64,000 bases of DNA from Candidatus Woesearchaeota archaeon (lineage in GTDB: Archaea; Nanobdellota; Nanobdellia; Woesearchaeales; JACPBV01), in the NCBI GenBank assembly GCA_016180135.1, contig JACPBV010000004.1, positions 26,868 through 90,867 on the forward strand, written 5' to 3'. The notes beneath the pieces are model-generated. The model searched no databases. It was not told the DNA's origin and saw nothing but the letters and a program-made list of their open reading frames with translations. Both the position numbers and the translations under genes were made by a program. Below are positions 3,297-62,608 of the stretch, piece by piece. Positions within the stretch are counted from its first letter, which is position 1, and every line of letters starts with the position of its first letter.

Positions 3297-4208
3297 TTAT
3301 CTTTTCAGCATATCCGCTAAAAAGCCAAACAGCGTTATCTGGATTCCCGTCATGATGAACAGCGCGCTTAAGATGACCCTTGGGATTCCGCCGACATTCC
3401 CTGCAGTCAGGACAGAATACACTATCCACGCCCCGAGAACTATCCCCAGTCCGATAAAGAACATCCCCACCGCCCCGAAAAACTTCAGTGGCTCATAATC
3501 CCTGTAGATGCGTAAGATATTCATTCCGGCCCTCCCTGCATAGGAGAAAGGATTGCTTATCAGCCTGCTCTTATCCTTCCTTCGTGCGAAATGCACGGGC
3601 ACCTCAGCTATTTTAAGCTTTTGCTTTACTGCCCGGATGATCTGCTCCTGGGTGTAAGTGTGGAGAGAATAAACTGGCAGTCTCGCAGCCTCCGCAGTGA
3701 ACGCCCTAAACCCAGTCTGGCTGTCAGTTATCTTCTTCCCTGCGATGCCCGACACAACCATCGAAAAAGCCTTATTCCCGAATCTTTTCACCAAAGGCAT
3801 GCTTTCAATATGCCCCGTAAAGCGTGAGCCTAACACCAGATCAGCTTTCTTCTCAATAATCGGCCTGAGCAGCGAAGGTATGTCTTTTGCCAGATACTGC
3901 CCGTCAGCGTCGATGTGGACGATGATCTCAGCCCCCAGCCGTAAAGCTTCCTTCATCTCAGTCCTGAACGTCTCCCCTAACCCCTTATTTGTAGGATGAG
4001 AAACCACCTTTGCCCCGAGGCCAAGCGCAATCTTTCTCGTGTTATCCTTGCTCCCGTCATCAGCAACGAGGATGATTGCCTGAGGCAATATTTCCCTGAT
4101 GCCAATGATTGCATTGCCGATAGTCTTCTCTTCATTAAATGCAGGGATAGTAACAACTATCCTGGGATTTTTCCCGCCCATAAATTTCTCCGCTTTCTCT
4201 CCGCCCAT
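3297..4208 (-). CDS. GT2 glycosyltransferase, dolichyl/polyprenyl-phosphate sugar synthase-like, with C-terminal TM helices
   Basis: VVTIPAFNEEKTIGNAI...LVADDGSKDNT...HIDADGQY matches the GT-A DxD-type pattern, and there are two C-terminal TM segments. The start is set at Met22 (4208), so a TATA-like box at 4231-4238 lies 23-30 nt upstream. Confidence 0.8.
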   Translation of the reverse strand: MGGEKAEKFMGGKNPRIVVTIPAFNEEKTIGNAIIGIREILPQAIILVADDGSKDNTRKIALGLGAKVVSHPTNKGLGETFRTEMKEALRLGAEIIVHIDADGQYLAKDIPSLLRPIIEKKADLVLGSRFTGHIESMPLVKRFGNKAFSMVVSGIAGKKITDSQTGFRAFTAEAARLPVYSLHTYTQEQIIRAVKQKLKIAEVPVHFARRKDKSRLISNPFSYAGRAGMNILRIYRDYEPLKFFGAVGMFFIGLGIVLGAWIVYSVLTAGNVGGIPRVILSALFIMTGIQITLFGFLADMLKR

Positions 4209-7761: not shown

Positions 7762-7845
7762 CTCCCGAAGTGCCGGGGCAATTTATAAACCTTTGTTTAA
7801 GCCAATATTCTGCAGGATATGCTCTCAGCTTTGGTAAGAAAACTC

Positions 7846-7905
7846 CTATGAATCACTTTTCCGCAGGAGCGGCTCTGCCGCCTAAGGTCAAAACTCAATT
7901 GACAT
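7846..7905. mobile_element. solo 5-prime-arm fragment of the family-B hairpin element
   Basis: tatgaat...ccgcaggagcggctctgccgcctaaggtcaaaactcaattgac matches the B 5-prime arm (ccggcaagagcggctctgccatcctaaggtcaaaactcaact). No matching 3-prime arm follows. Confidence 0.5.
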
Positions 7906-10794: not shown

Positions 10795-10828
10795 TATTTC
10801 CACGCCTTTATCATCCAGCTCCCGCCCC
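10795..10828. repeat. 34-bp perfect direct repeat, copy 1 (flanks the PIN/AbrB cassette)
   Basis: tatttccacgcctttatcatccagctcccgcccc is identical to 11553-11586. Confidence 0.9.
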
Positions 10829-11242
10829 TTTATCGTGCTCAATTCTTGAAAGAAATTCCGCAGGCGTCAGGATAGAAACTCCCTGGTATTGTTTTAGTTT
10901 GAGAAGGTGCCTGTCTCCAGTCACAATGAACTCTGCCTTTGCGGCAATTGCGCAGGACAGCACCTTGTCATCCTTAGGGTCTTCTTGGACAGCAATAACT
11001 TGGATGGTAGGTTCGATTATTGTTGAAATTGTTTTGAAAAGGCTTATCTGACGTTGGATAAACTCTTCAGGCACATCAAAGTCCCTTTTTTGGCTTTCTT
11101 CCATCTCCAAAAGCATCTCTGGTGAGGTAAAGCTGCTGATCTGCTGCTGGAGCGCAAGCCGGACAATGGCGTGGGGTTTTCCTAGCTCCCAAAAAATTGA
11201 AGAGATCAGGATATTGGTATCCAGCACAACCCTTTCAGGCAT
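10811..11242 (-). CDS. PIN-domain toxin (VapC-like)
   Basis: VVLDTNILISS (N-terminal acidic Asp) ... FIVTGDRHLLKL... matches the PIN_3-type pattern. It lies immediately downstream of an AbrB-type antitoxin. Confidence 0.8.
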   Translation of the reverse strand: MPERVVLDTNILISSIFWELGKPHAIVRLALQQQISSFTSPEMLLEMEESQKRDFDVPEEFIQRQISLFKTISTIIEPTIQVIAVQEDPKDDKVLSCAIAAKAEFIVTGDRHLLKLKQYQGVSILTPAEFLSRIEHDKGAGAG

Positions 11243-11243
11243 C

Positions 11244-11504
11244 CTAAGCCCCTCTGCCCCGATGGATTTTTTTGACTACTGCTTCTTCATCTTTGATTCC
11301 CTTTTGCTGTGCAAATTTTTGCCCCCAGCGGGTAAGCTCTTGAAATTCCTTCTCAAGTTCAGTCATATTCATCTTTTTTATCACCACTGCATCACGTATT
11401 GTGCTGATGGCAACAGCAGTTCCTGGCATCAGGTCTAGCTCATTGCGGATTTCTAGGGGTATTACTACCTGCCCTTTAGTTGAAATCTTTGAAATTTCAG
11501 TCAT
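11244..11504 (-). CDS. AbrB/MazE/SpoVT-family antitoxin
   Basis: ISTKGQVVIPLEIRNELDLMPGTAVAIS is the swapped-hairpin AbrB motif. The start is moved to Met29 (11504) to avoid running into the upstream methyltransferase gene. Confidence 0.75.
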   Translation of the reverse strand: MTEISKISTKGQVVIPLEIRNELDLMPGTAVAISTIRDAVVIKKMNMTELEKEFQELTRWGQKFAQQKGIKDEEAVVKKIHRGRGA

Positions 11505-11551
11505 GGTAGTCCTCAAGTTGGAAAGTAATACTTTCTTACTTAAAAAACTTC

Positions 11552-12337
11552 CTATTTCCACGCCTTTATCATCCAGCTCCCGCCCCATATTTTCTCAAGC
11601 TGCCGCACAAGCCATTTATTGGGAAATTTGTCCCCGAGGGAATTGATCAGTGGCCTCCGCCAGACTTTAACTCTGCTGAACTGGGTGAACAGCCTTTTGA
11701 TTCCGGCTTTGGTATACACCCTTACCAAGGGCACATTCCCTTCAACTTCATAATGCTTATGGACGATTTCGCTCCAGCTGAGCCTGAAAAATTCCCCGCG
11801 CAATATCCCGTGCCACAGCGGAAAAAATAAGTAATACATCCACCCCCGTGCATAAAGCATGATGACTGCGCTCTTCCCCGGCTTTAAAGCGCGGTGAACT
11901 TCATTGATCGCTTTTCGTGTGTCCGGCGTATGGTGCAGAACTCCAAAGCTGTAGGCAAAATCAAAGGTATTGTCAGGAAACTCAAGATGCTCTGCATCCA
12001 TCCTTTTGAAATGCCCCCTCAACCCGTAGAGCTTGAATCTTTTTGCAGTAGTCTCGATGGCATTCTGGGTCAGATCGACCCCGTAAACTGCCGCGCCATG
12101 CTTCGCAAACATCAGGCTGTCGGTCCCGATGCCGCAGCCGACCTCCAGGATCTTCTCCCCGGCATGCCTGTTGAATTCTGCATCGCTGAGCAGGAAAGGA
12201 TATTGGGTGGTGAACCTCACCCGCTCCACCTCGTCATAGTATTCTTTGGTGCCGGCTTCCTTTTGAGAATACCACCGCTGGGGCAGTTTCCCTTCCCAGT
12301 ATCCCCTGATATTTTCCTTGTCTTTTACCGGCTTCAT
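11552..12337 (-). CDS. class I SAM-dependent methyltransferase
   Basis: ILEVGCGIGTDSLMFAKHGAAVYGVDL (motif I) and FDFAYSFGVLHHTPD are present. Confidence 0.8.
   Translation of the reverse strand: MKPVKDKENIRGYWEGKLPQRWYSQKEAGTKEYYDEVERVRFTTQYPFLLSDAEFNRHAGEKILEVGCGIGTDSLMFAKHGAAVYGVDLTQNAIETTAKRFKLYGLRGHFKRMDAEHLEFPDNTFDFAYSFGVLHHTPDTRKAINEVHRALKPGKSAVIMLYARGWMYYLFFPLWHGILRGEFFRLSWSEIVHKHYEVEGNVPLVRVYTKAGIKRLFTQFSRVKVWRRPLINSLGDKFPNKWLVRQLEKIWGGSWMIKAWK
11553..11586. repeat. 34-bp perfect direct repeat, copy 2 (covers the last codons and stop of the methyltransferase gene)
   Basis: Identical to 10795-10828. On the minus strand it encodes ...GGSWMIKAWK-stop. Confidence 0.9.
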
Positions 12338-15657: not shown

Positions 15658-15690
15658 GATTTAGGGGCGGTTTAAAAGCTTTATCCTCTG

Positions 15691-15864
15691 GTATGTATTA
15701 AGCTCCGGCAAGAGCGGCTCTGCCATCCTAAGGTCAAAACTCAACTATCAAACTAAATCGCGCTCGTCGTGGGGGGATGCCCCCTCGGGGACACAGAGCC
15801 CTTGCCAAATCAATTGGGAGTTTTGAAGAGGGCAGAGCCGCTCCAAGGGGAGCTTAATACATAC
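15691..15864. mobile_element. family-B long-hairpin MITE-like element, copy B1 (174 nt)
   Basis: The 16-bp terminal inverted repeat is gtatgtattaagctcc / ggagcttaatacatac. Inner perfect stems are gagcggctctgcc/ggcagagccgctc (13 bp) and tcaaaactc/gagttttga (9 bp). The GC-rich core is ggggggatgccccctcggggacacagagcc. The flanking 8-mers match only imperfectly (atcctctg vs cttctgca). Confidence 0.7.
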
Positions 15865-20948: not shown

Positions 20949-21003
20949 AAGGAAAACCTGAGATGGGAAAAACTGAGAGTGTATTTAAAGATTTGTGTGT
21001 TTG

Positions 21004-21177
21004 GTATGAATTAAGCTCCGGCAAGAGCAGCTCTGCCATCCTAAAGTCAAAACTCCATCCAAAAAGACAGCCAGCCCGTTGCGGGGGGTTGTCCCTTACG
21101 GGGACGCAGGGCCATCGCCAGACTTATCGGGAGTTTTGAAGATGGCAGAGCCGCTCCGAGGGGAGCTTAATTTATAC
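21004..21177. mobile_element. family-B long-hairpin MITE-like element, copy B2 (174 nt)
   Basis: The inverted repeat is gtatgaattaagctcc / ggagcttaatttatac. The same 13-bp and 9-bp inner stems are present. The core is gcggggggttgtcccttacggggacgcagggcc. The flanking 8-mers tgtgtttg / ggtgtttg match 7 of 8. Confidence 0.75.
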
Positions 21178-23693: not shown

Positions 23694-23763
23694 ATTGATT
23701 CCACGGGAATAACTTGCTGATGAAGAAAATCACTTAACTCTATTTAAACCATTCGCAAAATCA

Positions 23764-23930
23764 GCGGCTCCGTTCAAAATATAGGTTAGCAGCCTAAAGT
23801 AAAAATCATTTGCCCTCTGAATCCAGCTGACAAGGGGGACGCCCCCAACGGGGAATGTCAGCAACTGAAAAATCACTTTGGGATTTTTAAGCTGCTAACC
23901 CGAGCGAAGCGAGATTTTGAACGGAGCCGC
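23764..23930. mobile_element. family-C long-hairpin MITE-like element (167 nt)
   Basis: Terminal inverted repeat gcggctccgttcaaaat / attttgaacggagccgc (17 bp). Inner stems are ggttagcagc/gctgctaacc and gctgaca/tgtcagc. The core is agggggacgcccccaacgggg. An 11-bp direct repeat gcaaaatcagc sits at 23755-23765 and 23929-23939. Confidence 0.7.
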
Positions 23931-23934
23931 AAAA

Positions 23935-24525
23935 TCAGCCTTTCTCCGCCCTCACAACATTCGTTATTGGATCAGCTTTCCTGTCTTCATATATCCTAAA
24001 CCCGGCATGGGCAAGCAGTCTGTGCAGCCCGTTTCTTGAAAACAGCCGTATCCTCACCCCATGGCTCAGGTGGAATGCTTTATACAGAAAGCCGGCCGGG
24101 CTTGTTCGTGGATAGATACAGACAAAAACTCCCCCTCTCTTCAAAGATTCATAGATATTCTGCGCTCCTTGTTCAGGATGCCTCATGAATTCCAATGCCC
24201 CTGCGCAAAGCGCTTTATCAAACACCCCTTTTGGCCGCTCCAGCTCGATGTTGCAGACTTCAGCTGCAATCCCAAGCTTCCTTGTTTCCAGGACCATCTT
24301 GGGAGCGATGTCAATCCCGAAGGGAACCCCATGAGCTTCCCTGATCAGGGCACCGTAATGCCCGCTGCCGCACCCGACGTCGAGGACAGATTCGTTGGCC
24401 TTCACTGCCAAAAGCTCAAGGGCAATCTCCTGCTCTTTCTTAACAAGCTTCCCGATGAAGCCAGTCCCTCCCCGCTCACCGGCATACACCGATGCCTTCC
24501 TGTCAAAATACTCGCCTGCTTTCAT
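23935..24525 (-). CDS. class I SAM-dependent methyltransferase
   Basis: VLDVGCGSGHYGALI...GIDIAPKMV is motif I with post-I. Confidence 0.75.
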   Translation of the reverse strand: MKAGEYFDRKASVYAGERGGTGFIGKLVKKEQEIALELLAVKANESVLDVGCGSGHYGALIREAHGVPFGIDIAPKMVLETRKLGIAAEVCNIELERPKGVFDKALCAGALEFMRHPEQGAQNIYESLKRGGVFVCIYPRTSPAGFLYKAFHLSHGVRIRLFSRNGLHRLLAHAGFRIYEDRKADPITNVVRAEKG

Positions 24526-24714: not shown

Positions 24715-24829
24715 GAAAATTTCAACAACCTCGGCGAGGCGAGGCTGGGGGTCGCCCCATCGGGGTAGCCGAGCAGGGCAAATTTCCAGAGGAAATTTGA
24801 CCGTCGAGCCATGTGTTGTTGAAATTTTC
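24715..24829 (+). repeat. family-A structured repeat, copy A1 (115 nt)
   Basis: A 15-bp closing stem gaaaatttcaacaac / gttgttgaaattttc encloses ctcggc...gtcgag, a GC hairpin (ggctg-ggggtcgccccatcgggg-tagcc) and the hairpin caaatttcc-aga-ggaaatttg. Confidence 0.75.
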
Positions 24830-24858
24830 GCGCATTGCACCTCATAAGAGGTGTCTTT

Positions 24859-24955
24859 AAATGCAAACATTTAATCATTCTCCTGCTAATCGGATTTTTT
24901 TTTTGAATGCAAATATTTAATGATTCTCTGGATGGTGGTGGCCGGATTTCGTTTA
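24859..24955 (+). repeat. degenerate family-D-like element (D3), adjacent to A1
   Basis: aaatgcaaacatttaatcattctc and gaatgcaaatatttaatgattctc resemble the D 5-prime end aaatgcaaatattcc. ggtggccggatttcgttt resembles the D 3-prime end ggtggtcggatttctttt. Confidence 0.35.
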
Positions 24956-24988
24956 ATCTTTCTATGCTAAATGCTTCTTCTACTTGCC

Positions 24989-26823: not shown

Positions 26824-26853
26824 TGTTGAGTCAGCATCTCCCTGCGGGCGGTT

Positions 26854-27003
26854 AAATGCAAATATTCCACCAGTCTTTGACTGGTGGTTGACGCTCGATT
26901 AGACGTTGGGAATATTTGCCTTCTCAGAAATCCGACCCGAGCGACCGAAGGGAGCGAGCAATCCCCCCCGTCTGTGACGGGGGGTGGTCGGATTTCTTTT
27001 GAA
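26854..27003 (+). repeat. family-D two-domain structured repeat, copy D1 (~150 nt)
   Basis: Domain 1 is gcaaatattcc/ggaatatttgc enclosing ccaccagtc-ttt-gactggtgg. Domain 2 is agaaatccgacc/ggtcggatttct enclosing cgagcgaccgaagggagcgagc and ccccccgtc-tgt-gacgggggg. Confidence 0.7.
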
Positions 27004-27628: not shown

Positions 27629-27688
27629 GCTGCTGAAATTTCAGCAATGTTTAAAAAGGTTCCTCTATTCGAAGAATAAGGAAAAATC

Positions 27689-27987
27689 GTATGTATTAAG
27701 CTCCGGCAAGAGCGGCTCTGCCATCCTAATGTCAAAAACTGTTGTTTTTGAGCATGCTCAGAAATCGTAACTATTATAATAAGATATGACGATTTCTGAC
27801 AGGTCAAAACTCAACTGTCTAACTGAATCACGCTCGTAGTGGGGGGATGCCCCCTCGGGGACACAGAGCCCCTGCCAAATCAGTCAAGAGTTTTGAAAAC
27901 CCTAAGAAGCGAAGTTTCGTGGGTGCCAATAATGCGCAAGCATTATTAAGCATGGCAGAGGCGCTCCAAGGGGAGCTTAATACATAC
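27689..27987. mobile_element. family-B element, copy B3 (299 nt), carrying two nested insertions
   Basis: Same 16-bp inverted repeat and core as B1. Perfect 8-bp flanking duplication gaaaaatc (27681-27688 and 27988-27995). Relative to B1 there are extra segments of about 70 nt in the 5-prime arm and about 55 nt in the 3-prime arm. Confidence 0.8.
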
Positions 27988-29078: not shown

Positions 29079-29230
29079 GAAAATTTCAACAACATCGGCG
29101 AGGCGAGGGAGGGCCGCCCTCCGTCCGCAGACCGGAACGCTGGATTATCCCTCCGTCCGCAGACCGGAACGCTGGATTATCCCTCCGTCCGCAGACCGGA
29201 ACGCTTTTTTTTCCCTCCGTCCGTTTTCTC
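29079..29230 (+). repeat. family-A element, copy A3: 5-prime half only, followed by tandem expansion
   Basis: It starts gaaaatttcaacaacatcggcgaggcgaggg as other A copies do, then runs into 32-nt tandem units. No gttgttgaaattttc 3-prime arm is present. Confidence 0.6.
29117..29223 (+). repeat. perfect 32-nt tandem repeat (ccctccgtccgcagaccggaacgctggattat), 2 full units plus 24-nt and 11-nt partial units
   Basis: Units read directly at 29117-29148, 29149-29180 and 29181-29204, then T8, then ccctccgtccg. Confidence 0.9.
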
Positions 29231-36009: not shown

Positions 36010-36154
36010 ATGTTCCAGAAAAATTCGTCGGTATATAAACCATTCGCTAAATTCTTTTCCTTTCTTCCCTCGATAAAGGTGGGCATATTATCTTTGCACA
36101 CCCTACAGCCCTATCCGCACTAACAGCACAACATCTCTAACCGCACTAACGGCC

Positions 36155-36919
36155 CTAAACATACTCCCCGCCATCGGCAGGCAGGTCATAATGGGTGATC
36201 ACAGCAAAAGCCAAAAATCGCCCGAATTTATAGGAGAATCCTGAAGTAGTTATTTTTCCAACCTCTGCGCCGTTGATTGTCACCCTCTCAGGAATCTTGG
36301 TATAAGCTATTCTCACCAGCTTTCTGGCCGGCCTGCCAAGATTCCTCACCCTTGCCATCACTTCCTGGCCGGGATAGCATCCCTTTGAAAAAGAGGCCTC
36401 ATCCTCCCGGGCAATCTCAAGGAACATCTGCTGGTCAAAATCAATGCCCTGAACCGCCATATTGTTCTCAAGCCGAAGCGCAGTATATACTCCCTCAGAA
36501 ATTTCCTTGATCCCCTGGATGATTGAGAGCCTGTCGGTAAGCGCAAGATACCCGAGAGGCTGGGGAATCCTCAGGGTTCCGGCAGCATGGTTCCCAAAGA
36601 TGTGCAGCACCCTCAGCGGCATCTCCTCAATGGCGACTTTTGCAAGCTTCGCATATTTCTCAGCCGATTCCAAAAACCTCCCTTTGAACCTGTCTTCAAA
36701 AGCCAAATAAACTTCATCACCGGTAACCAACTGATCAAAAAGAACTGTTAGTTTTCCAAAACGGTCAAGCAGTGCATTTTTTGTCTTATCAAGCGTATTG
36801 CAGGATATCCTCTCAAGAAGCTGCTTCCCGCCCTTGCCAAACCTAAACACCGCTTTGGCCAGAGGCTTATAGCCTCCGGTGATCATTGCGCTGGTGTATT
36901 CTTCGAGGATAGAGTCCAT
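36155..36919 (-). CDS. ygfZ: YgfZ/IBA57-family folate-binding protein (GcvT-like)
   Basis: The family signature KGCYPGQEVMARV is present, and the length is about 250 aa. Confidence 0.8.
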   Translation of the reverse strand: MDSILEEYTSAMITGGYKPLAKAVFRFGKGGKQLLERISCNTLDKTKNALLDRFGKLTVLFDQLVTGDEVYLAFEDRFKGRFLESAEKYAKLAKVAIEEMPLRVLHIFGNHAAGTLRIPQPLGYLALTDRLSIIQGIKEISEGVYTALRLENNMAVQGIDFDQQMFLEIAREDEASFSKGCYPGQEVMARVRNLGRPARKLVRIAYTKIPERVTINGAEVGKITTSGFSYKFGRFLAFAVITHYDLPADGGEYV

Positions 36920-36949
36920 AAGTCTTGAAAAGTGCTCAGCATTAAAAGC

Positions 36950-37702
36950 TTACCCAAAAGAATGTCCGCATCCGCAGCTTGTCTTGGCATTGGGGTTTGA
37001 TATCTTGAAGCCGGAAGCCTGCAGGTTCTCGATGTAATCGATTTTTGCTCCTTTGAGCATATCCATGCTTGCAGCATCCACAAAGAACTTCACGCCGCCT
37101 TCCTCGATGACAAAATCATCCGCCTGATCCATATCTTCAGATTGCCCCCTATTTTCAGCTTGTCCCTTCTTCTCAGCCTGCTGCTTCTTCTCAAAAGAGA
37201 ACTCGTATTCAAAACCTGCGCATCCGCCGGGAATGACTGCAATCCTGATGCCTGATACATCATCTCCTTCCTTGCTCAAAATATCCCTTACTTTTTCAGC
37301 TGCCTCCTTGGTGACTGTCAGGGACAGACTGCCATCCCCCCCAGCTTCCCGGTTGGATGCTTCCTTCCTCGCTGCCTCAACTGCCTCATTTAACTTTTCC
37401 ACAACAGCATCCGCATCTTCAGCGCTTCTCCCGTGCCCCATCAGCCCTTGCTCTATCGTCTCAAAATAGGATGCGCCGCAGCCGATGCAATGCACCCCTT
37501 CAGCAAGCAGAGGCTCAATCGCTTCAGGGTAAGACTGGACTAAATCCCCGATAAGCATATCTTTGGTGATTTTATTAATAACTTCGGCTGATTTGTGTTC
37601 ATTTCCCATCTGCTCGGTTTTCTCTTCCATCTGTTGAGTTTTCTGTCCCGCCTGCTGGGCCTGAGAGCGTTCCATGCTTCCTCCGATGCAGTTAGCAATC
37701 AA
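36950..37702 (-). CDS. fusion protein: DUF1858 (redox-disulfide, hybrid-cluster-protein-associated) domain + IscA/HesB A-type Fe-S carrier
   Basis: The N-terminal half ITKDMLIGDLVQSYPEAIEPLLAEGVHCIGCG is DUF1858-like. The C-terminal half ...GIRIAVIPGGCAGFEYEFSFEK...NPNAKTSCGCGHSF has the three A-type carrier Cys residues. Confidence 0.8.
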   Translation of the reverse strand: MIANCIGGSMERSQAQQAGQKTQQMEEKTEQMGNEHKSAEVINKITKDMLIGDLVQSYPEAIEPLLAEGVHCIGCGASYFETIEQGLMGHGRSAEDADAVVEKLNEAVEAARKEASNREAGGDGSLSLTVTKEAAEKVRDILSKEGDDVSGIRIAVIPGGCAGFEYEFSFEKKQQAEKKGQAENRGQSEDMDQADDFVIEEGGVKFFVDAASMDMLKGAKIDYIENLQASGFKISNPNAKTSCGCGHSFG

Positions 37703-37734
37703 TAAACAATTCTTAACAATAGTTAAATCAGGAA

Positions 37735-37746
37735 CCTATAAAAAGG
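37735..37746. promoter_or_regulatory. TATA-like box (cctataaaaagg) between divergent genes
   Basis: It lies 24-31 nt upstream of the ATG at 37768 (plus strand). On the minus strand tttttata lies 33-40 nt upstream of the ATG at 37702. Confidence 0.4.
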
Positions 37747-37767
37747 TTTCTTAAAATCAATCTTAAA

Positions 37768-38166
37768 ATGATAGGATTTGTCAACAACAACCGCTGCTTT
37801 GCCTGCGGCAAAGAGAACCCTGTCGGATTAAAGCTGGACTTCAGGCTAGAAAACGGCCAATACAAAGCAGCCTTTACTCCAAAGCCGGAGCATCAGGGAT
37901 ATAAAGGCATTGTGCATGGGGGTATTGTCGCCACAGTCCTGGACGAAGCGATGGGAAGGCTGATGTTTGAACTTAACAAGAATGCGGTGACCGGCTCTTT
38001 CTCCGTAAGGCTCAACAGGCCGGCGCTGACGGGAAAAACTTATACTGCCGTCGGAGAGATTGTAGCGGAGCAGGAGAGGAAGATACTCACAAAATCAAGG
38101 CTGGTTGATGATGCAGGGGTTGTTGTGGCGGAAGCTGAGGGAGTGATGGTAAAATTGAAGCAATAG
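37768..38166 (+). CDS. PaaI-family hotdog-fold thioesterase
   Basis: CFACGKENPVGLKL...HQGYKGIVHGGIVATVLDEAMG is the PaaI/4HBT-type motif. Confidence 0.8.
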   Translation: MIGFVNNNRCFACGKENPVGLKLDFRLENGQYKAAFTPKPEHQGYKGIVHGGIVATVLDEAMGRLMFELNKNAVTGSFSVRLNRPALTGKTYTAVGEIVAEQERKILTKSRLVDDAGVVVAEAEGVMVKLKQ

Positions 38167-38207
38167 AAATCACCTCCCGATAACCTTCACCCCATGAAAA
38201 CCGTCAG

Positions 38208-38218
38208 ATTTAAATATA
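38208..38218 (+). promoter_or_regulatory. TATA-like box (atttaaatata) 21-31 nt upstream of the ArsR-family gene
   Basis: Position and composition. Confidence 0.45.
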
Positions 38219-38258
38219 AGATATGATCTTCTAATCATATGATTTGCAATTCATATGA
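38219..38258. promoter_or_regulatory. candidate operator: repeated tcatatga palindromes over the transcription and translation start of the ArsR-family gene
   Basis: Perfect 8-bp palindromes tcatatga at 38235-38242 and 38251-38258, plus a partial copy atatgatc at 38221-38228. They lie between the TATA box and the first codons. Confidence 0.3.
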
Positions 38259-38562
38259 GCGCTTTTTTAAGACGCTGGCAGAGCCGGCAAAGCTGGAGAT
38301 CATCAACCTGCTGAGCAAAGGGCCGTTGAATGTCTCGCAGCTCTCCAAAAAGCTCAACTTTGAGCAGTCGAGAGCATCCCATAATCTCAAGGCGCTTGCT
38401 GACCGGCATTTTGTCCTTGTCGAAAGGAAAGGAAAAGAACGTTATTATTCGCTCGATAAAACCATCATCGCCCCTATCCTCAGGCTCATCGATGCCCACG
38501 TCGAAAAGTATGAGAAGCATTACTGCAAATGCAAAGGCATACCCTGGAGGAAAAAGGAGTAG
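38239..38562 (+). CDS. ArsR/SmtB-family metal-responsive transcriptional regulator
   Basis: FKTLAEPAKLEIINLLSKGPLNVSQLSKKLNFEQSRASHNLKALADRHFVLVERKGKERYYSL is a winged HTH. A C-terminal Cys pair (YCKCKG) is present. Confidence 0.85.
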   Translation: MICNSYERFFKTLAEPAKLEIINLLSKGPLNVSQLSKKLNFEQSRASHNLKALADRHFVLVERKGKERYYSLDKTIIAPILRLIDAHVEKYEKHYCKCKGIPWRKKE

Positions 38563-38631
38563 GATACCCAAACAAGATACCTCAACAAGATACCCAAACA
38601 AGATACCTCAACAAGATACCCAAACAAGATA
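38563..38631 (+). repeat. 13-nt tandem array (gatacccaaacaa / gatacctcaacaa alternating, 5 units plus a partial) starting right after the ArsR stop codon
   Basis: Units read directly. The effective period is 26 nt, about 2.6 copies. Confidence 0.85.
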
Positions 38632-38722
38632 GATGAGTATGATGCACGAGTAATGCGGGAGGTAAGATAAGGTGTATCGGGGTTGCAGGACTGGAAAATA
38701 CAACTATTTTGGAGGAAAAAAC

Positions 38723-39154
38723 ATGATAAAACTTATAAAAGAAAAATTGGTTGGATGGGCTGGCAGCATTTCAAGCGCTGCAAGCATCATGGGCTCGTGG
38801 CAGATATGCCATAGCATCTGCTTAGGCCTGATCTCGCTGCTGAGCATCATCGGCATTACGGTAGCGGGGATGCCTCTGCTCTTCCTTACTGAAATCGCTG
38901 TTCCGATGTGGACGGTTGCGTTGGCAATTTTCATCATAACCCTGTGGCTCTACCTCACAAAAAAATGTATCTCTCCTAAGCTTTTGCTGCTTAATGCCGG
39001 GCTCATCATCGCAGGCACTCCTTTCCAGCAGCTCCGGCAATTCCAGATTTATTTCTGGGCAGTTGGTGGCCTGATTGCCGCCGGAGCAGTCGGCTGGTAT
39101 CTCAAAGACAGGCTTGCCGGGAAAATCCCGCACCAAAAAGGGGGGAAGAGATGA
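38723..39154 (+). CDS. small membrane protein with intramembrane CxxxC motif (putative metal-handling accessory protein)
   Basis: [15 protein letters not shown]...[16 protein letters not shown], with 4 TM segments. ggagg lies 8 nt upstream of the ATG at 38723. Its stop overlaps the copA ATG (ATGA). Confidence 0.5.
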
Positions 39155-41745
39155 AACACTCAAAAAATCGGAGCATGATAAATCCTGCCAAGAGCATGTC
39201 AAGGTCCGGATCAGGTGAGCTGGCAGCGGCAGATAAATCCTCCAGAAAAATAACACTGTCAATCAGCGGGATGCACTGCGCTTCCTGCGCCGCAAATATT
39301 GAAAAAGCGCTCGGCAGGACGGAGGGGGTAAAGACTGGCACGGTGAACTTTGCGTCCGAAAAAGCCACGATTGTTTTTGACCCGGAAAAAACTGATGAGC
39401 CTAAGCTGAAAGCTGCTATCATCAAAACGGGCTACAAGGTTGTTGAGCAGGGAAATGCTCAGGAACCTAAGCAGGGTGGGCAGGGGATGGGGCAGGAAAA
39501 GGGGAATGCCGGTAGCAAAGGCGGATTCAGCGAGCTCCGGCTTAAGGTTGTTGGGATGGATAACCCTCATTGCGTCTCAACGGTTGGCGATGCCCTGAAT
39601 CTTGTCAAGGGCATCATCTCAAAAGAGCTGTCTGCCAGCCAGAATGCTGTCATCACATTTGACTCATCAAAGGCATCTCCGGATGAGATAAAAAAAGCGA
39701 TAGCCAAAGCAGGCTATGAGCCCGTCGAGCTGTCTCCTCAGCTTGCGGACAGGGAAAAGGAAGCAAGGGCAAAGGAGATCGGAAGGCTCAAGAAAGAGAT
39801 TATCTTTGGGTTTATCTTAAGCATCCCAATTTTTATCCTCTCTTTTCCGCAGTGGTTTAAAATAATGCTCCCCTATAATCACTACATTCTTTTTATCCTG
39901 ACAACGCCTGTCCAGCTGATTCTAGGAAGGCGTTTCTATACCGGCGCTTACATCGCATTGATGAATAAATCTGCTAATATGGATTCCCTTATCGCAATCG
40001 GGACTTCGGCTGCCTATGTCTACAGCTCGTTAGGGACTTTTTTCCCTTCAACATTTGGCGATGCGATGTATTATGACACTGCGGCAGTGATTATCACATT
40101 CATCCTTCTTGGCAAATACCTTGAGGCAGTCACCAAGGGAAAAGCATCGGAGGCGATCAGGAAGCTCATCGGGCTGCAGGCAAAGACTGCCGTCATCATA
40201 CGGGGCGGGAAAGAAGTGGAAATCCCCGTCGATCAGCTTCAGGTGGGAGACATTTTCCTTGTAAAGCCCGGAGAGAAGATTGCGACGGATGGGATTGTCG
40301 CTTCAGGCGCTTCTTTTGTTGACGAGTCTATGGTCACTGGCGAGAGCATTCCCGTAAAGAAAGGGATGGATGATGCTGTTATCGGATCAACCATCAACAA
40401 GCACGGGCTCCTGAAAGTCAGGGCAGCAAAAGTCGGCAATGAGACGATGCTTTCCCAGATCATCAGGCTGGTTGAGGATGCGCAGGGCTCGAAAGCCCCT
40501 ATCCAGAGGCTGGCTGACAAAGTTTCAGGGATTTTTGTGCCCGCAGTAATAGCGATAGCTGTCATCTCATTTTTGTTCTGGAACTTCATGGCGCCGCAAT
40601 GGCTTTCGTTATCCCCCACACCATTCTTGTTTTCATTGGTCATCTTCATCTCGGTCCTTATCATTGCATGCCCCTGCGCTCTCGGGCTTGCGACGCCGAC
40701 AGCCATCATGGTCGGCACAGGAAAAGGCGCTGAGCATGGCATCCTCATCAAGAATGCCGAAGCATTGGAGACTGCCCATAAGATTACAACTGTTGTTTTT
40801 GATAAGACCGGCACACTGACAAAAGGCGAGCCGTCGGTAACTGATATTATCCCATTGGGCTCAAGTCTCAACCGGCAGGAGCTTCTTTTTTATGCTGCCG
40901 TCGCAGAAAAAGGCTCTGAGCACCCGTTGGCTGAAGCGATAATGAAAAAAGCGAAATCTGAGAAACTGATTGTTCCTGATGCATCCTCCTTTTCAGCAGT
41001 CCCGGGAAAAGGCGTTATAGCAAAGCACAAAACCCATTCCCTGCTCGCAGGCAGCCCGAAATTCCTCTTGCAGAAGAAAATTTCTTTTCCTCAGGGGGCT
41101 GAAGAGCAGATTGCGAAGCTCGAAGGCGAAGGAAAGACCACCATTGCTCTTGCCGTCGATGAAAAGCCAGCCTGCCTCATTGCGGTTGCCGATACCCTGA
41201 AGGAGAGCTCGCAGGAGGCATTACGCTCCCTGAACAGCCTGGGCATTGAAACCATTATGATCACGGGAGACAACGAAAGAACTGCAAAAGCAATCGCTTC
41301 CAAGGTTGGAATCAGCAAGGTTCTCGCAGAAGTCCTCCCTCAGGACAAGGAAAAAGAGATCAAAAAGCTCCAGTCCCAGAACAATGTAGTTGCGATGGTC
41401 GGCGACGGCATCAATGATGCTCCGGCCCTTGCCCAGGCAGACGTCGGCATAGCGATAGGCGCCGGGACAGACGTTGCCATAGAGACTGGCCAGATAGTGT
41501 TGATAAAAAGCGACTTGCGTGATGTGGTCACTGCAATTAAGCTGAGCTCCTACACCATAAAAAAGATCAAGCAGAATCTCTTCTGGGCGTTTGGCTACAA
41601 CACCTTAGGGATACCGATCGCAGCCGGCATCCTGTATCCGTTTACTGGCTTCCTCCTAAATCCGATCATCGCAGGCGCTGCGATGGCATTCAGCTCCGTC
41701 TCTGTCGTCGGAAACAGCCTGCTGATGAGAAGGTGGAAAGGGTGA
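39151..41745 (+). CDS. copA: copper-translocating P1B-type ATPase
   Basis: An HMA domain ([15 protein letters not shown]) and a second, degenerate HMA domain are present. The CPC motif ([10 protein letters not shown]), DKTGTLT and [10 protein letters not shown] are all present. Confidence 0.95.
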
Positions 41746-41749
41746 AGTT

Positions 41750-42157
41750 TTACTTAAAAAAACCCAAAGACCTCAAATAAAGATAAAATAGGACTATAAG
41801 GATTCCCATGAAAACCCATTTTGGGTCGATAGCAAATGCCTTTCTGTTTCTTCTAAATGCTTCTAATATTGATATTCTCTTCTCTATTTCATAAAGTCTT
41901 TTTTCTTCGTCCATTTTATCTTTTATATCCTCAATATCCTTTTTGTTTTTATTCACCTGATTAATATAAAATTTAACTTTATTTGAAATCCAAACAGAGC
42001 CATACAAAAAGCTTACATATCCTAAGATGGCTAAAAAATATATTAAGCTGTTTTGTTGGTCTTTTGCAGTTTTCGGTGGAAATATCTGTAAGATTATTGC
42101 AAATAAGGTTATTATAAACATTATTTTTTCCACGAGACCTATTTTCTCTTTTTCCAT
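41750..42157 (-). CDS. hypothetical membrane / coiled-coil protein in an AT-rich islet
   Basis: 135 aa. Two N-terminal TM segments, a charged helix (KNKKDIEDIKDKMDEEKRLYEIEKRISILE) and one C-terminal TM. I recognise no family. Confidence 0.4.
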   Translation of the reverse strand: MEKEKIGLVEKIMFIITLFAIILQIFPPKTAKDQQNSLIYFLAILGYVSFLYGSVWISNKVKFYINQVNKNKKDIEDIKDKMDEEKRLYEIEKRISILEAFRRNRKAFAIDPKWVFMGILIVLFYLYLRSLGFFK

Positions 42158-42357
42158 GTTGTTTTGAACCTATTCTGCAACAATAATAATGCCTTCTTTT
42201 TCCATCAATAATCTCAATAAACTCCTGAAGTATCTCAATCCCATTTATACCTGTGGTGTGCCTACCTAAATTAAACTCCCCATCCCCTTCTTTAAATTTC
42301 ATTAATGCCTCTTTTTATCCTTTAATTTTTCTCCTAACAAAGTCAATGGCCTTATTT

Positions 42358-43017
42358 TTATACCTCAAACCCATATTTTCCATACATCGGCGTAAACAGG
42401 AACTGCCCGAGAAATTCCAAAGCGATTGTCCCGTCTTTCCGCTTGATGCCCCTTACCATCTCCTGCTCACGTGCATCACCCACAGGGCCGAGGATGATTC
42501 CATCCGTCTTGAGCTGCCCCAAGAGTTCTTTGGGAAATTCCCTGCATGCAGCAGTGATGATGATTTTGTCAAAAGGGGCTTCAGGGGCAATTCCTTTGCT
42601 GCCATCATCCTCAAAGATCTCAACATTCCTCACACCGGTCTTCATTAGGTTCCCCCGTGCAAAATTGACCAGCTCCGGGATGACCTCGGTGCTGACAACC
42701 TTCCCCTTCGGGCCGACAATTTTTGCAAGGATTGCCGCCTGATAACCGGAGCCCGTCCCAACTTCAAACACTTTATCTCCTGCCTCCAGCTCTAATGCAT
42801 GAGTCATTATCATCACGGTTGTTGGCTGTGAGATTGTCTTTCCCCGCAGCAGCGGCAGAGGCCTGTCATCGTAGGCAAACCCCTTCATTTCAGCAGAGAT
42901 AAAATGCTCCCTCTTGACTTCAGAAAATGCCAGTATCTCCCGGGGAGAGAACTTGAAATGCTCCGTCCAAAACCGCATCAGCGTCTCTTTTTGGATTTGC
43001 ATAAGCGTATGAATCAA
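42358..43017 (-). CDS. pcm: protein-L-isoaspartate O-methyltransferase
   Basis: ISQPTTVMIMTHALELEAGDKVFEVGTGSGYQAAILAKIVG is the classic PIMT motif set. Confidence 0.9.
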   Translation of the reverse strand: MIHTLMQIQKETLMRFWTEHFKFSPREILAFSEVKREHFISAEMKGFAYDDRPLPLLRGKTISQPTTVMIMTHALELEAGDKVFEVGTGSGYQAAILAKIVGPKGKVVSTEVIPELVNFARGNLMKTGVRNVEIFEDDGSKGIAPEAPFDKIIITAACREFPKELLGQLKTDGIILGPVGDAREQEMVRGIKRKDGTIALEFLGQFLFTPMYGKYGFEV

Positions 43018-43065
43018 TCCAACTATATAAAGATTTCATTTTGGAGTATGGATTAAACTGTAAAA

Positions 43066-43184
43066 GAAAATCCCAACAACAAAGGGCTCGACGGTCAAAT
43101 TTTTCTCTGAGAAAAATTTGCCCTGCTCGGGCACCCCGATGGGGCGACCCCCGCCCTCGCCTCGCCGATGTTGTTGGGATTTTC
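43066..43184 (-). repeat. family-A structured repeat, copy A2 (119 nt, inverted orientation)
   Basis: The closing stem is gaaaatcccaacaac / gttgttgggattttc. It differs from other copies by three compensatory pairs. The inner modules are conserved in reverse complement. Confidence 0.75.
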
Positions 43185-45812: not shown

Positions 45813-45933
45813 GAAAATTTCAACAACATCGGCGAGGCGAGGGCGGGGGTTTGTCCCTTACGGGGTGCCCGAGCAGGGCAAAATTTCCACAGAGGAAATT
45901 TTGACCGTCGAGCCCTTTGTTGTTGAAATTTTC
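45813..45933 (+). repeat. family-A structured repeat, copy A4 (121 nt)
   Basis: Same closing stem as A1. The inner hairpins are gggcg-ggggtttgtcccttacgggg-tgccc and caaaatttcc-acaga-ggaaattttg. Confidence 0.75.
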
Positions 45934-46032
45934 GCACATTGCAACCTAAAACTGCAGTTATGGGGAAGTGCGTTGATTGGGGGACACAATAGGGATTTAC
46001 ATCAATCCCCTTTACAACACCATTCGAGTATT

Positions 46033-46180
46033 AAATGCAAATATTCCACCAGTCTCTGACTGGTGGTTGACTCTCGATTAGCCATTGGGAATATTTGCCT
46101 TCTCAGAAATCCGACCCGAGCGACCGAAGGGAGCGAGTAATCCCCCCGTCTGTGACGGGAGGTGGTCGGATTTCTTTTGA
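46033..46180 (+). repeat. family-D two-domain structured repeat, copy D2
   Basis: More than 90 percent identical by eye to D1 (26854-27003), with the same four stems. Confidence 0.7.
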
Positions 46181-46254
46181 ATAATTGCGGCAAATGTAGC
46201 ATAACTACTGCAATTATCTATATTTTTCTGATGTAGAAGTTTTATCCAATATCT

Positions 46255-47211: not shown

Positions 47212-47502
47212 TTGGCTTCAAAAGAAGGCATGGAGACGGATGTAGACAGAGTTCTTGCTAGTGTCAGGAAGAAGCGTTTGCTGATGGAAGTCGAGGTCAA
47301 GGGCCTCATCGAGAAGAAGGAAGAGGAAATTTCCATCCCCTTAAGCATTTTCTCGGAGAGATTAGGCATGCTTGAGTCTATCGTTCATTATCTCAGGGAT
47401 TCTCATGGGCTTTCTTTTACAGAGATTGCAGGGCATCTAAAGCGGGACTACAAGACAGTCTGGGCGACATATCAGCAGGCAAAGAAAAAGTATAAGCGAT
47501 GA
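47212..47502 (+). CDS. small helix-turn-helix protein (sigma-70 region-4 / LuxR-like HTH), translationally coupled to the giant ORF
   Basis: LGMLESIVHYLRDSHGLSFTEIAGHLKRDYKTVWATYQQAKKK looks like an HTH. The stop overlaps the giant-ORF ATG (ATGA at 47499-47502). The start may be TTG 47212 or ATG 47230. A TATA-like ctttataaac lies at 47181-47190. Confidence 0.55.
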   Translation: MASKEGMETDVDRVLASVRKKRLLMEVEVKGLIEKKEEEISIPLSIFSERLGMLESIVHYLRDSHGLSFTEIAGHLKRDYKTVWATYQQAKKKYKR

Positions 47503-50500
47503 AACAATCCAGCAAAGTTAAGGAAATCAGCGCAGGCATAAGGGAGCTCAGGCTCTCAGGGAAAAATGCCGATAATGCCAGAAAGAGCTATGCAAGGCTG
47601 CTGGAAGCCTTGCTTCAGGAAAAAGAAAAACTGCAGTCTCATCTCAGCAAAGGGATTCTATCAGAGCAGAACTATGATCAGATTCTCCAGGAAAATCTTG
47701 ACGGCAAAACCAGGATGCAATGGATTGCCTATTGTGAAAATATCCTTGGCAGCGCAGATTCCAAAAAACAGCAGTATCGCCGATGGGTCGGAGTTCTTGA
47801 GGACGACATTGGCCGGATTAAACGATCTTTCAGGAAGGGAAGCATCTCCCAGGAAGCATACCATCATCTCCTGAACCAGAAGATTGAGGGAAAAACCAGG
47901 GAAGGATGGATTGTATCCGCAAAAATGGCGTTGTATGGTCTGGAAGAGGGTGAATCCCTGGCGGGCGCTCAGGGAATTTTAAGCCGCAGCGCATCGTCAG
48001 TAATCAGAGCATCAAAATCGCTGCTAGAAGAGAAAAAGGAACTCCTCGTTAACACCGCCCCTATAATATTGATGCTCTTGCTTCTCAGCCTCTCAGCTTT
48101 TTTTATCAGCCCGGCGCACACCGGATTTGCAGTCATAAGCATAGAGAATGGATTTGAGGATTCCTTAAACCTCTCCCTCAACGGGTCATCCTCATTCCTC
48201 TGGGCCCCGGCCAGCCACGGAATGATAACGAACATTGCAGTCAGCGGAAGGCTTTCAAAAGGTGCCGGAGCAAAAATCTACCTCGAAAAGGCCGGCAGGC
48301 TTTATCTGCTCCTTGATACTGAAGCTGGCTTGAAGACAGAAACAGTTTTGCAGGAAATTCCCGGCATTGCTGCTGGAATCAGTTCCCTCCCGCAGCAAAA
48401 GATCCCCCTCACCGGAGAGATTGAAAACCTATCTGTTGCCCTTATCGGCTCAGGGCCAGTTCAATCAGCAAATGATATATTTAAATTCGGCTTGAAGCAA
48501 AGGGCAGGATTAGACAACAGCTCTTCAGTCCCTGATGAGAACTTCTGCGCACTATGGAAAGTGAACAATGTTTCGGCAGAGTGCTATGGAAATGCTGACT
48601 GCTGCAGTTTTGCGGGCCTCGAAGCCAGTGGCTCCTGGAATGATACGTTCTACCTGTATTCCGGAAGATTCAGCGCAAAGAAAGACAATCTCATTGAGCC
48701 AATCCTTATCTCTTACGATGTCAATCTGAGCATCCCGAAGTCCGATATTAGGATTTCCTCCGCAGTTGCGGAAGCCCATTTTGCGGATGAGCTGGAGAGA
48801 TTCAGCCTTGCATGCATGGAAACGTGCAGCGGCCTGGAGTTTAACGAATCGCGATACTCTCTTGTTGTCTCTTTGGCAATTGGCTCGCTCATCCTTGACA
48901 GCATCTCTTACAAAATGGCCGAAAGCTATAACGTATCAGAAAATTCCCCTCTGCTCCAAAAGAACATCTCTAATGTGTCGCTCTACCAAAACGAAAACAT
49001 CACGTTAAGCCTTAATGATTTCTTTGCCGATGCAGACTCCGATGCGCTGGTATACTATGCTTATCCTGCAGAAAATATCAGCTTTTCTTTTTACCAGGGG
49101 AACATCACCGTCATCCCTGATAAGGATTTCCTCGGCAAAGCATCAACATTTTTTACTGCCTCAGACGGCTTTTTTAATGCCACTTCAGGAATAATTGATA
49201 TTGAGGTTGCTGAAAAGCCGCTCCTCCCGGCTCAGGTATCGGTCACCCAAACTCCCATAAAACCCAAGGTAAGGGTCAATGAGCCGGTGAAATGGGTTAC
49301 AAGAGTTAATTCCACCAGGAAAGTCATAAACCTCACGATGAGCCTGGCGCACGGGGCTGAGAACATCTCCGTCAGAGAATTGACTCAGGGCAGCATTGAT
49401 ACCTCAAGAGTCATTGATACATCCAAAGTGATTGATACATCCAAAGTGATTGATACCTCAAGAGTCATTGATACTGCTGGATTCATGAATCTTAAATCAG
49501 TATTTGTCAGCGAGCAGGGCCAGACTAAAAACCTCTCGCTCTATAATGCCGAAAAGTATTTGGCCAGGCTTGAATCCAGGGAGGAGATGCTTATTGAAAC
49601 CAAAAGGGGAAAGATTAAAAATGACCCGACGGAAATTGAAGCTCTGAAATCTCTTAACACCCAATTGCGTGATGTTGAAAACGAGAAAAACCGGATTACA
49701 GGATTTGTTGTTGCCCAAAGAGGGCAGAAAGGCATTATAACCCGATTTTTTGAATGGCTCATCCAATCAGACCTCGTCGGATTTGCCATCCTCAACGCCC
49801 CATTAGCTCCAATCACCACTCCCTCCACTAATCTCATCCCCACCCCCACAACTAATCACGCCACTAACTCCTTCCCCACTCCCTCCACTAATCTCATCCC
49901 CACCCCCACAACTAATCTTGAAGAGCCTGGCGAAAATGCCCATCCCCCAGTATTGACGATTGCCGAGGGGATTAAAGAAGCCGAGATTACTTATTTCACG
50001 GAAGCTCCGGTTGCCGAGGAATTCAATCTGTCAGAGTCAGGCAAGCGCATTATCATCAGCTCAGACATCCACTATGAAAACATTACGGCTTTCACTTACC
50101 TCCCCGGCGAATATGCCTCTTCAGGCATCCATCTGTATTGGATGAAAAACGGCTCAAGGGAAGAGGTAAATTTCACAGCATTTGATGAAAACAATAACGG
50201 CAGGATTGATTATATCGAATGGATCATCCCCTCGTTGTCAAACCAGACATATGATCTCTCCCTCACCATCATCACACTGAAGAGTTATCCTATCATTGGA
50301 AGAAACTGGACGACAGAGTTTAATGTTTCCGGCACAGCAAACCTCACGATCACTGCAGTCAACAGCACAAGTTTTGGCCAGGTCTACGTTGACAATTTCT
50401 CCTCGGAAGACGACCTCTATCTCAGGGAACTGAAATGCGGTAATCTCACCGTATGGAACAACGGCACAAATTATTCATCAGGCAATGTTTTCTTCGTCCT

Positions 50501-62603: not shown

Positions 62604-62608
62604 AAAAA

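Follow-up and report, generated by a model that had tools for sequence, protein, structure and literature searches.

A conserved two-domain palindromic repeat of Woesearchaeota as a candidate non-autonomous mobile element

The repeats of family D found in the window (the whole stretch of 64,000 nt of Woesearchaeota DNA that was analysed) are best read as small, non-coding, interspersed elements of a narrow group of Woesearchaeota (DPANN) genomes. About nine copies are known in total, in unrelated intergenic contexts of at least three assemblies. We consider it probable (at roughly 0.55) that D is a non-autonomous mobile palindromic element of the REP/BIME/MITE kind, recognised in trans via its ends and hairpins and possibly as single-stranded DNA. 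Sequence comparison indicates that the spread of D between lineages postdates the divergence of the genomes. No published description of the D family was found; repeat-rich Woesearchaeota as such are already known and not new.

Sequence, location and fold of the D repeats

The two full-length copies in the window, D1 and D2 (Table 1), are 95.4% identical over 152 nt by BLAST, in agreement with the figure of more than 90% given in the initial annotation, and 94% identical when aligned with their flanks. The terminal 18-19-mers of D occur exactly twice in the window, against chance expectations of 0.03 and 0.13. D1 is located within a polysaccharide-synthesis cluster. Both of its neighbouring genes are on the minus strand, the start of a glycosyltransferase gene being 28 nt away and the stop of a methyltransferase gene 56 nt away. 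D2 has a plus-strand cupredoxin-like gene on one side, with the family A element A4 after the gene, and a plus-strand 209-aa ORF on the other.

With a size of about 150 bp, D is non-coding and has no conserved ORF. A coding reading was rejected, as the sole open frame differs between D1 and D2 through a 1-nt indel, and no protein homologue was found for a spurious ORF that spans D2. A diversity-generating retroelement repeat was also rejected, the D1/D2 differences not being adenine-specific and D being non-coding. Short-read contigs break within D, and Logan contigs from the window edges terminate in repeats.

The computed fold of D1 (-67 kcal/mol, z = -6.1) consists of a 64-nt domain 1, a 4-nt spacer (CTTC) and a 72-nt domain 2, with an overhang of 6 nt at each end. 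It recovers both closed domains that had been described from the sequence, the first being gcaaatattcc/ggaatatttgc around ccaccagtc-loop-gactggtgg and the second agaaatccgacc/ggtcggatttct around a purine-rich hairpin plus ccccccgtc-tgt-gacgggggg. In D1 the purine-rich hairpin reads CGAGCGACC-GAA-GGGAGCGAG, in which tandem G.A pairs are possible. One inverted repeat closes each domain; none closes the whole element. The opposite strand folds with -65.6 kcal/mol (z = -5.8), and because the complementary strand folds almost equally well, the structure stems from the palindromic nature of the DNA and gives no evidence for one transcript.

Table 1. Positions of D repeats and of neighbouring repeat elements (window coordinates unless a locus is named).
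Feature	Position	Strand	Remarks
D1, full-length D, two closed domains	26852-27003	+	186 bits
D1 domain 1	26858-26921	+	outer stem GCAAATATTCC/GGAATATTTGC; inner hairpin ACCAGTC-TTT-GACTGGT; variable side hairpin
D1 domain 2	26926-26997	+	outer stem AGAAATCCGACC/GGTCGGATTTCT; purine-rich hairpin CGAGCGACC-GAA-GGGAGCGAG; hairpin CCCCCCCGTC-TGT-GACGGGGGG
D2, full-length D	46031-46181	+	178 bits
Short D-type variant 1	24857-24907	+	termini 5' TTAAATGCAAA and 3' CGGATTT...TTGAA as in D; interior different; 27 nt past A1
Short D-type variant 2	24903-24956	+	head-to-tail with 24857-24907, TTGAA common to both
Short D-type variant 3	62552-62604	+	domain 1 5' end fused to domain 2 3' end; 4 nt ahead of A5
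Full D copy	L005 3658-3808		MAG GCA_016180165.1 (JACPBU); 93-94% identical to window D; 570 nt from RNase J gene
Partial D copy	L012 6826-6924		77% identical; contig end, upstream of Sua5/YrdC gene
Full D copy	L024 3886-4037		GCA_964386515.1; 82% identical
100-nt D variant	L024 3090-3191		GCA_964386515.1; D termini kept, interior different
A1, family A, neighbour of two short D variants	24715-24829	+	D starts 27 nt later
A4, family A closed element, neighbour of D2, not part of D	45813-45933	+	D2 97 nt later
A5, family A with nested inserts, neighbour of short D	62609-62845	+	4 nt past 62552-62604
Family A copies	24715-24829; 43066-43184 (-); 45813-45933; L027 1202-1311 (-)		
Copies of families A, C and D on the + strand	7838-7898, 15689-15864, 21002-21177, 24715-24829, 24857-24956, 26852-27003, 27687-27987, 29079-29230, 45813-45933, 46031-46181, 62552-62845	+	

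Structural conservation

Covariation was assessed in an alignment of five D sequences, including the diverged copies from other genomes, in which 93% of cells pair. Seven pairs show compensatory changes (both sides changed, pairing kept), a number reached in 0 of 500 shuffles, with a maximum of 3 in slid controls. These are located in helix 1 (n = 2), helix 2 (n = 3), the inner hairpin of domain 2 (helix 6, n = 1) and a poorly paired side hairpin (n = 1). The structure of D is conserved, because seven base pairs show compensatory changes across five copies; the initial annotation, which had presented D as a structured repeat to be judged by fold and covariation, is borne out in this respect, and the D copies do not lack a conserved structure. 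Paired changes can also arise without selection in long perfect palindromes, through templated quasi-palindrome correction.

Conservation is uneven along the element. Domain 2 is the best-conserved part of D and its outer stem is invariant across the alignment, and helix 3, the variable side hairpin of domain 1, lacks conservation. Between D1 and the full-length L024 copy, 27 of 31 differences fall in the first half of D (35% divergence in domain 1), and a 37-nt run comprising the domain-2 5' stem and the purine-rich hairpin is identical despite an overall identity of 82% (p = 0.002). Watson-Crick to Watson-Crick changes are all strand-neutral, and the wobbles are mixed, two U.G pairs favouring the + strand and one the minus strand; a strand assignment by wobble pairs (two versus one) was not decisive and was dropped.

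The compensatory changes and the near-invariant domain 2 would fit a functional RNA or a protein-binding site as well, which weighs against the mobile element reading. D might be a multi-copy gene for a structured, trans-acting non-coding RNA, read from the + strand, whose domain 2, a three-way junction containing a tandem-G.A hairpin, would bind a protein or target. We regard this as unlikely. The covariation of helices 1, 2 and 6, the stability (z-score of -6) and a domain 2 that is almost invariant despite 18% overall divergence all speak for such a gene, as does the purine-rich hairpin, which is sensible on one strand only and has a counterpart in a related motif of another family in L012 with Watson-Crick pairs in place of the G.A positions. 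However, folding is equally good on the minus strand, no promoter is conserved, and the flanks are unrelated in every copy; the sole TATA-like sequence is formed by D's own first 8 nt and would start transcription within helix 2. Functional RNAs typically conserve loops over stems. In D the reverse is seen, with the 3-nt loops among the most variable positions and the stems and termini among the least variable. Furthermore, the length variants preserve termini but not structure, and the sites are non-syntenic and show pile-up with other repeats. No Rfam match comes near any threshold: in the window only the archaeal SRP RNA passes (Rfam 15), the best match over D1 being sR035 with 18 bits versus a threshold of 233, and nothing passes in L005, L012, L018 and L024.

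Copies in other genomes and length variants

Outside the window, D copies were identified at three loci (L005, L012, L024), and no flanking genes are shared among D loci. The MAG containing L012 is labelled Methanosarcinales, yet it has two repeat families in common with the window. About 170 kb of loci from other Woesearchaeota/Nanoarchaeota relatives (33-44% GC) contain no D. When a genome collection was scanned for the domain-1 outer stem, 12 loci came up; only L005 and L012 were genuine, the remainder being chance palindromes in cyanobacteria and gut bacteria; a metagenome scan with the D 5' 21-mer returned only chance matches inside a cytochrome gene. A match to the D model at L018 2000-2166 (17 bits) proved to be a different two-domain closed element and no D homologue. 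No vector for D was seen on viral contigs, where three of four exact-pattern scans were empty and one gave a chance 23-mer in coding DNA of 65-70% GC, or in phage and plasmid collections, where there was no BLAST match. The full D of L024 is followed 13 nt later, on the minus strand (4051-4166), by a sequence that resembles the acceptor stem and T-arm of a tRNA (GCGGCTG...CCGGGTTCGAATCCCGGCAGCCGCA) and seems to contain an intron; neither ARAGORN nor Rfam made a call on it.

Four length variants possess both D termini and differ in their interiors, three short ones in the window and the 100-nt variant in L024. Paired D termini no more than 45 nt apart occur three times in the window, where 0.18 would be expected. 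A degenerate copy had been reported after A1 (24859-24955); its location is correct, but it is composed of two tandem short copies with a common TTGAA rather than a single one. The deletion derivative reported directly before A5 (62555-62603) was found as such, with a gap of 4 nt. Its join point coincides with the two similar inner hairpins, and its 5' part is of the L024 subtype (GCAACCATTCCATCCGGTC), so that two D subfamilies coexist in the window genome.

The pentanucleotide TTNAA is present at both ends of D. It appears to be element sequence and not a target duplication, because it is constant across copies and never identical at the two ends of one copy. TTNAA precedes or begins every D copy, and with these copies a candidate fixed target is indistinguishable from element sequence.

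Evidence for and against mobility

Loci L029-L031 have the same gene order as the window (giant gene, 209-aa homolog, cupredoxin homolog, XPD, PCMT), with spacers of 37 nt and 46 nt in place of the 493 nt (A4 and D2) and 221 nt (A3) found in the window. The 37-nt orthologue of the D2 spacer in L029 is D-free and nearly empty; this filled/empty comparison is one of gene order with a distant relative (30-41% protein identity in the flanking genes) and not of a base-exact empty site. The XPD/PCMT spacer of JACPBU is occupied by yet another closed element.

JACPBU, which includes both L005 and L018, is syntenic with window 36.1-43.0 kb in L018. At four-fold sites of the syntenic genes, the best conserved of those shared, the two genomes are 50-69% identical (28% in XPD), whereas their D copies are 93-94% identical at non-orthologous sites. 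The differences between D copies of different genomes are about as large as that within the window (4.6% between D1 and D2). Constraint alone does not explain this similarity between genomes, because domain 1 can drift, as is seen from its divergence in L024.

All five D copies in the window are on the + strand regardless of the direction of neighbouring genes, a suggestive bias that falls short of significance with four loci (p = 0.125). Along the + strand lie also 4/5 copies of family A and 4/4 of family C, whatever the strand of the neighbouring gene, with no significance for any single family; GC skew is negative throughout the window.

Classical hallmarks of transposition are missing, because D has neither a terminal inverted repeat nor a target-site duplication. 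When the first 30 nt were compared with the reverse complement of the last 30 nt, the best local score was 10, which was matched by 1111 of 2000 shuffles, and 10/20 positions were identical without gaps. No direct repeat was present in the flanks of D1, D2, the L005 copy, both L024 copies or the short copies. Likewise, no transposase, HUH/RAYT protein or recombinase was found in the 64-kb window by Pfam (ORFs of at least 90 aa, minus the 4988-aa ORF and two small ORFs) or beside D in the 5-10 kb loci, nor was TnpA or TnpB found in the window and the D-bearing loci. That no enzyme is seen in the window or beside any D copy counts against the mobile element reading.

A second alternative is that D is, or has become, a cis-element of the host, in which a hairpin in either orientation might act as a transcript-end stabiliser, terminator, insulator or site for a chromatin/topology protein. 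Cis roles of this sort have been proposed for the bacterial REP/BIME and ERIC elements. Such a function, which would be compatible with a mobile origin, appears doubtful for D. In its favour, nearly all copies are located just past gene ends, in tail-to-head or tail-to-tail spacers, and the structure is conserved; the + strand finishes in a stem followed by TTTCTTTT, and the TTAAAT end of the D1 and L012 copies is 28-92 nt upstream of a gene start. On the other hand, relatives have the same gene pairs with spacers of 37-46 nt and no element, a simple terminator scan does not flag D, and its orientation is mixed relative to transcription.

If D is a mobile element, as we favour, its copying and insertion would depend on an enzyme whose gene lies at another place in the genome or on a mobile vector. 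This enzyme might recognise the conserved ends (TTNAATGCA... and ...GGTCGGATTTCTTTTGAA) and/or the hairpins, and domain 2, with its near invariance and GCGAG-type purine-rich hairpin, would be the chief recognition hairpin. Folded single-stranded DNA would be the most likely substrate, in the manner of IS200/IS605-RAYT, because terminal inverted repeats and target duplication are lacking, the 3-nt loops are free to vary and the copies in the window have one strand orientation. New copies would favour spacers already holding other palindromic elements, and neighbourhoods of A and D could therefore be a by-product. A mobilising enzyme, if found, would be the first handle on the movement of non-autonomous elements in DPANN archaea. 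Repeats of this sort break short-read assemblies and can be mistaken for RNA genes.

Comparison with known repeat families

The REP/BIME elements and REPINs of bacteria are mobilised by RAYT transposases (IS200/IS605-type Y1), whose gene is usually flanked by the repeats. Like D, they are palindromes present in many intergenic copies, and compensatory changes maintain their stems. They also lack terminal inverted repeats and target duplications, form mosaics or clusters with other units, and most of their copies have no adjacent transposase. REP units, however, are single hairpins of 20-40 nt with a GTAG or CGTC tag at the foot, and REPs with these tags were found in bacterial phyla only, according to one survey (PMC3733652). 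In contrast, D is 150 nt long with two nested multi-hairpin domains and no GTAG/CGTC foot tag, and its hosts are DPANN archaea; CGTC occurs in D only beside the loop of the domain-2 inner hairpin and is CAGTC in L024. No RAYT was seen in the 64 kb of the window or in the 5-10 kb pieces of other genomes.

The bacterial MITE-like repeats ERIC/IRU, Correia (NEMIS), RUP and BOX resemble D in size (100-150 bp), in an intergenic location in either orientation, in a stable fold and in the occurrence of internally deleted or inserted variants and subfamilies, BOX being modular. The members of this group with known mobility are bounded by terminal inverted repeats and by TA or other target duplications, neither of which is seen in D. 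Palindrome-associated elements derived from IS200/IS605 (PATEs) share several traits with D: a subterminal hairpin at either end, the two resembling each other when read in the same direction, no inverted termini or duplications, and strand-specific features. The end hairpins of D that are alike in direct orientation are CCACCAGTC-TTT-GACTGGTGG and CCCCCCGTC-TGT-GACGGGGGG. D thus has the subterminal hairpins at both ends and the lack of TIR and TSD that mark PATEs. PATEs also insert 3' of a fixed tetra- or pentanucleotide and have a TnpA in the genome; no TnpA/TnpB was found in the available DNA, and the likeness is treated as a resemblance only.

As for MITEs, a prokaryote-wide survey gives about 105 MITEs/Mb for a Woesearchaea genome in the figures it reports, among the most MITE-dense archaea (PMC11602168). 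The host group is the same, with many small intergenic repeats, but that survey (PMC11602168) required terminal inverted repeats, which D as a whole does not have. Families A and C of the window have long perfect inverted termini of the kind that MITE surveys detect. D is small, non-coding and multi-copy at unrelated sites, as are TIR-type MITEs, and lacks both TIR and TSD; no related autonomous element or transposase with the same ends was seen in the window or at the D-bearing loci.

Association with family A and the GCGAG motif

D was initially noted to adjoin family A, and in the window this holds: 3/4 D loci share a spacer with one of the 5 A copies (hypergeometric p of 0.006-0.03, depending on the number of spacers counted), and the measured distance between A4 and D2 (97 nt) is close to the approximately 100 nt first given. 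The tendency does not extend to other genomes, however. A covariance model of family A, built from A1, A3, A4 and a relative in L027, found no true A copy near D in L005, L012 and L024. In L005, D is abutted on both sides by two unrelated closed inverted-repeat elements within a 1.2-kb gene-free stretch, and in the window no A copy lies within 2 kb of D1, while neither A2 nor A3 has a D beside it. Because no true A lies near D in these three loci and D is abutted by unrelated closed elements in L005, the A-D pattern reflects palindromic elements piling up in a small number of expanded or permissive spacers and not a specific A+D unit.

The proposal of a composite A+D functional unit, whose two parts would be transcribed or mobilised together, is for these reasons very improbable. 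Besides the shared spacers in the window, the GCGAG motif common to both families could be cited for it, but order and spacing vary (A-27 nt-D, A-97 nt-D, D-4 nt-A), D1, A2 and A3 stand alone, and family A has a much greater age and a wider distribution than D, being found also in L027, a locus from a genome with 33% GC. This idea is largely refuted, having no support beyond co-residence in crowded spacers.

The GCGAG motif has a frequency of 1.78/kb in intergenic DNA versus 0.26/kb in coding DNA. All 13 intergenic matches are within A1, A2, A4, A5, D1, D2 or a closed element at 23750-23935, and A3 has two on the other strand. The reported recurrence of the motif therefore stands for families A (including A5) and D, but not for family C, from which it is absent. 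It is conceivable, if rather unlikely, that D, family A and the 23.75-kb element are substrates of one as yet undescribed archaeal system that reads folded single-stranded nucleic acid via a shared purine-rich GCGAG-type hairpin, characterised by tandem G.A pairs and a GAA triloop. Such a system might correspond, in DPANN, to the REP-RAYT partnership of bacteria, or else consist of a host protein and RNA. If real, it would explain the common motif in unrelated-looking closed elements, their common orientation, their pile-up in spacers and the near-identity of copies between genomes whose neutral sites are 30-50% or more diverged. The tiny genomes of DPANN archaea are usually regarded as streamlined; in the present DNA, stacks of palindromic elements make several intergenic spacers five to ten times larger.

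Further observations were made on these elements. The family A relative of L027 has a different outer stem that is still perfectly paired (GAAAAACCGCCAACA/TGTTGGCGGTTTTTC) and the same G/C-rich core; the four-sequence alignment of family A contains seven covarying pairs. Family A is much older than D, its GC-rich closed element being conserved across genomes of 33% to 48% GC. In the closed element at 23750-23935 the outer stem is 17 bp long (GCGGCTCCGTTCAAAAT/ATTTTGAACGGAGCCGC), and a relative in L012 (3233-3405) shows compensatory changes in this stem; the GCGAAGC mini-hairpin is flanked by G.A pairs in the window and by T-A pairs in the relative. A 32-nt unit, ACCGGAACGCTGGATTATCCCTCCGTCCGCAG, is present as three tandem repeats in the truncated A2 (29099-29208) and once in A5 (62665-62710). 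It occurs again with 96% identity at L018 9875-9936, a JACPBU contig end, while the orthologous spacer of the window (36010-36154) does not contain it. C3 (27687-27987) has two insertions relative to C1, at about 27737-27800 and 27898-27953, and the core of the first, TTTTTGAGCATGCTCAGAAAT, is common to the closed element abutting D in L005 (3832-3870), pointing to nested or mosaic elements. About 20 nt immediately past the 3' arm of A1, A4 and A5 (24830-24856, 45934-45960, 62846-62875) are conserved as GCRCAWTGCA..CT.ATAA with a TATA-like box, which in A5 is located some 70-90 nt upstream of the SRP RNA gene (62939-63211).

Integron-like sites

Integrase-less cassette arrays and integrons have been reported in Nanoarchaeota/DPANN, and D with its neighbours could be seen as attC-like sites of an archaeal integron or of such an array, although we consider this extremely improbable. 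Uniformly oriented structured elements do separate blocks of one to few genes in the accessory polysaccharide cluster. Archaeal integrons exist, and attC sites, including archaeal ones, are like D structured, active on one strand, conserved in fold over sequence and placed between cassette-like genes (PMC9668308). An attC site is defined by R''/R' cores (RYYYAAC...GTTRRRY) that close one imperfect hairpin of 57-141 nt. The core motifs RYYYAAC and GTTRRRY are absent from both strands of D and A (D1, D2 and A4) and of the 23.75-kb element, core-like matches in C1 are unpaired, and the window contains 2 raw core-site pairs versus 10.7 in shuffles. D is made up of two closed domains, each a perfect hairpin, rather than one imperfect hairpin with extrahelical bases; its termini are not mutually complementary, and no tyrosine recombinase or integron integrase was found in the window. 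On these sequence features a canonical attC identity of D is refuted. Interpretations of D as a bridge RNA, an omega RNA, a retron or an H/ACA or C/D element were dropped, there being no adjacent partner gene, box motifs or Rfam match.

Other features of the window and its relatives

A syntenic block of 7 kb (window 36160-43038 versus L018 2187-9793) shows 79-92% DNA identity and contains an Fe-S protein, a thioesterase, an HTH-regulator region, a copper P-type ATPase and PCMT. XPD, beside the block, has only 62% DNA and 59% protein identity between the window and JACPBU; the XPD helicase of the window is 100% identical to an NCBI protein of a 'Candidatus Woesearchaeota archaeon'. Identity changes between XPD and the block within a spacer occupied by A3 in the window and by another closed element in L018, which suggests that the block might have been exchanged recently, with the repeat-bearing spacer as a boundary. 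The movement of such palindromic elements might also explain local gene exchange; the edge of the block falls in one of the repeat spacers. JACPBU was at first taken to be very distant on the basis of XPD (59%), a view that was revised in light of the 79-92% nucleotide identity of the L018 block. The RNase J of JACPBU is at most 72% identical to anything else, and together with XPD this suggests that the background of the window and JACPBU may be more diverged than the 7-kb block.

Within the block, the interval between ATPase and PCMT contains an AT-rich stretch of about 610 nt in the window (41746-42357), with a 135-aa ORF that has no Pfam match; about 70 nt are found in its place in L018. 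The copper ATPase of L018 (2936-5400, minus strand) aligns with the window protein as two segments that adjoin near 4428-4455, with no gene called, and has either a frameshift or an assembly error.

The end of a methyltransferase gene (window 10795-11588) harbours a PIN-domain and MazE-like toxin-antitoxin pair (10811-11242, 11244-11588), bracketed by a perfect 34-nt direct repeat (10795-10828, 11553-11586). This locus looks like a cassette insertion that would have duplicated the end of the methyltransferase gene. The 4988-aa ORF (47499-62465) has a homolog in L029 that is 33% identical over 750 aa, and it contains coding tandem repeats of 12 and 24 nt (49813-49917, 60605-60676). A 12-nt tandem array is also present in the first glycosyltransferase gene (1028-1183).
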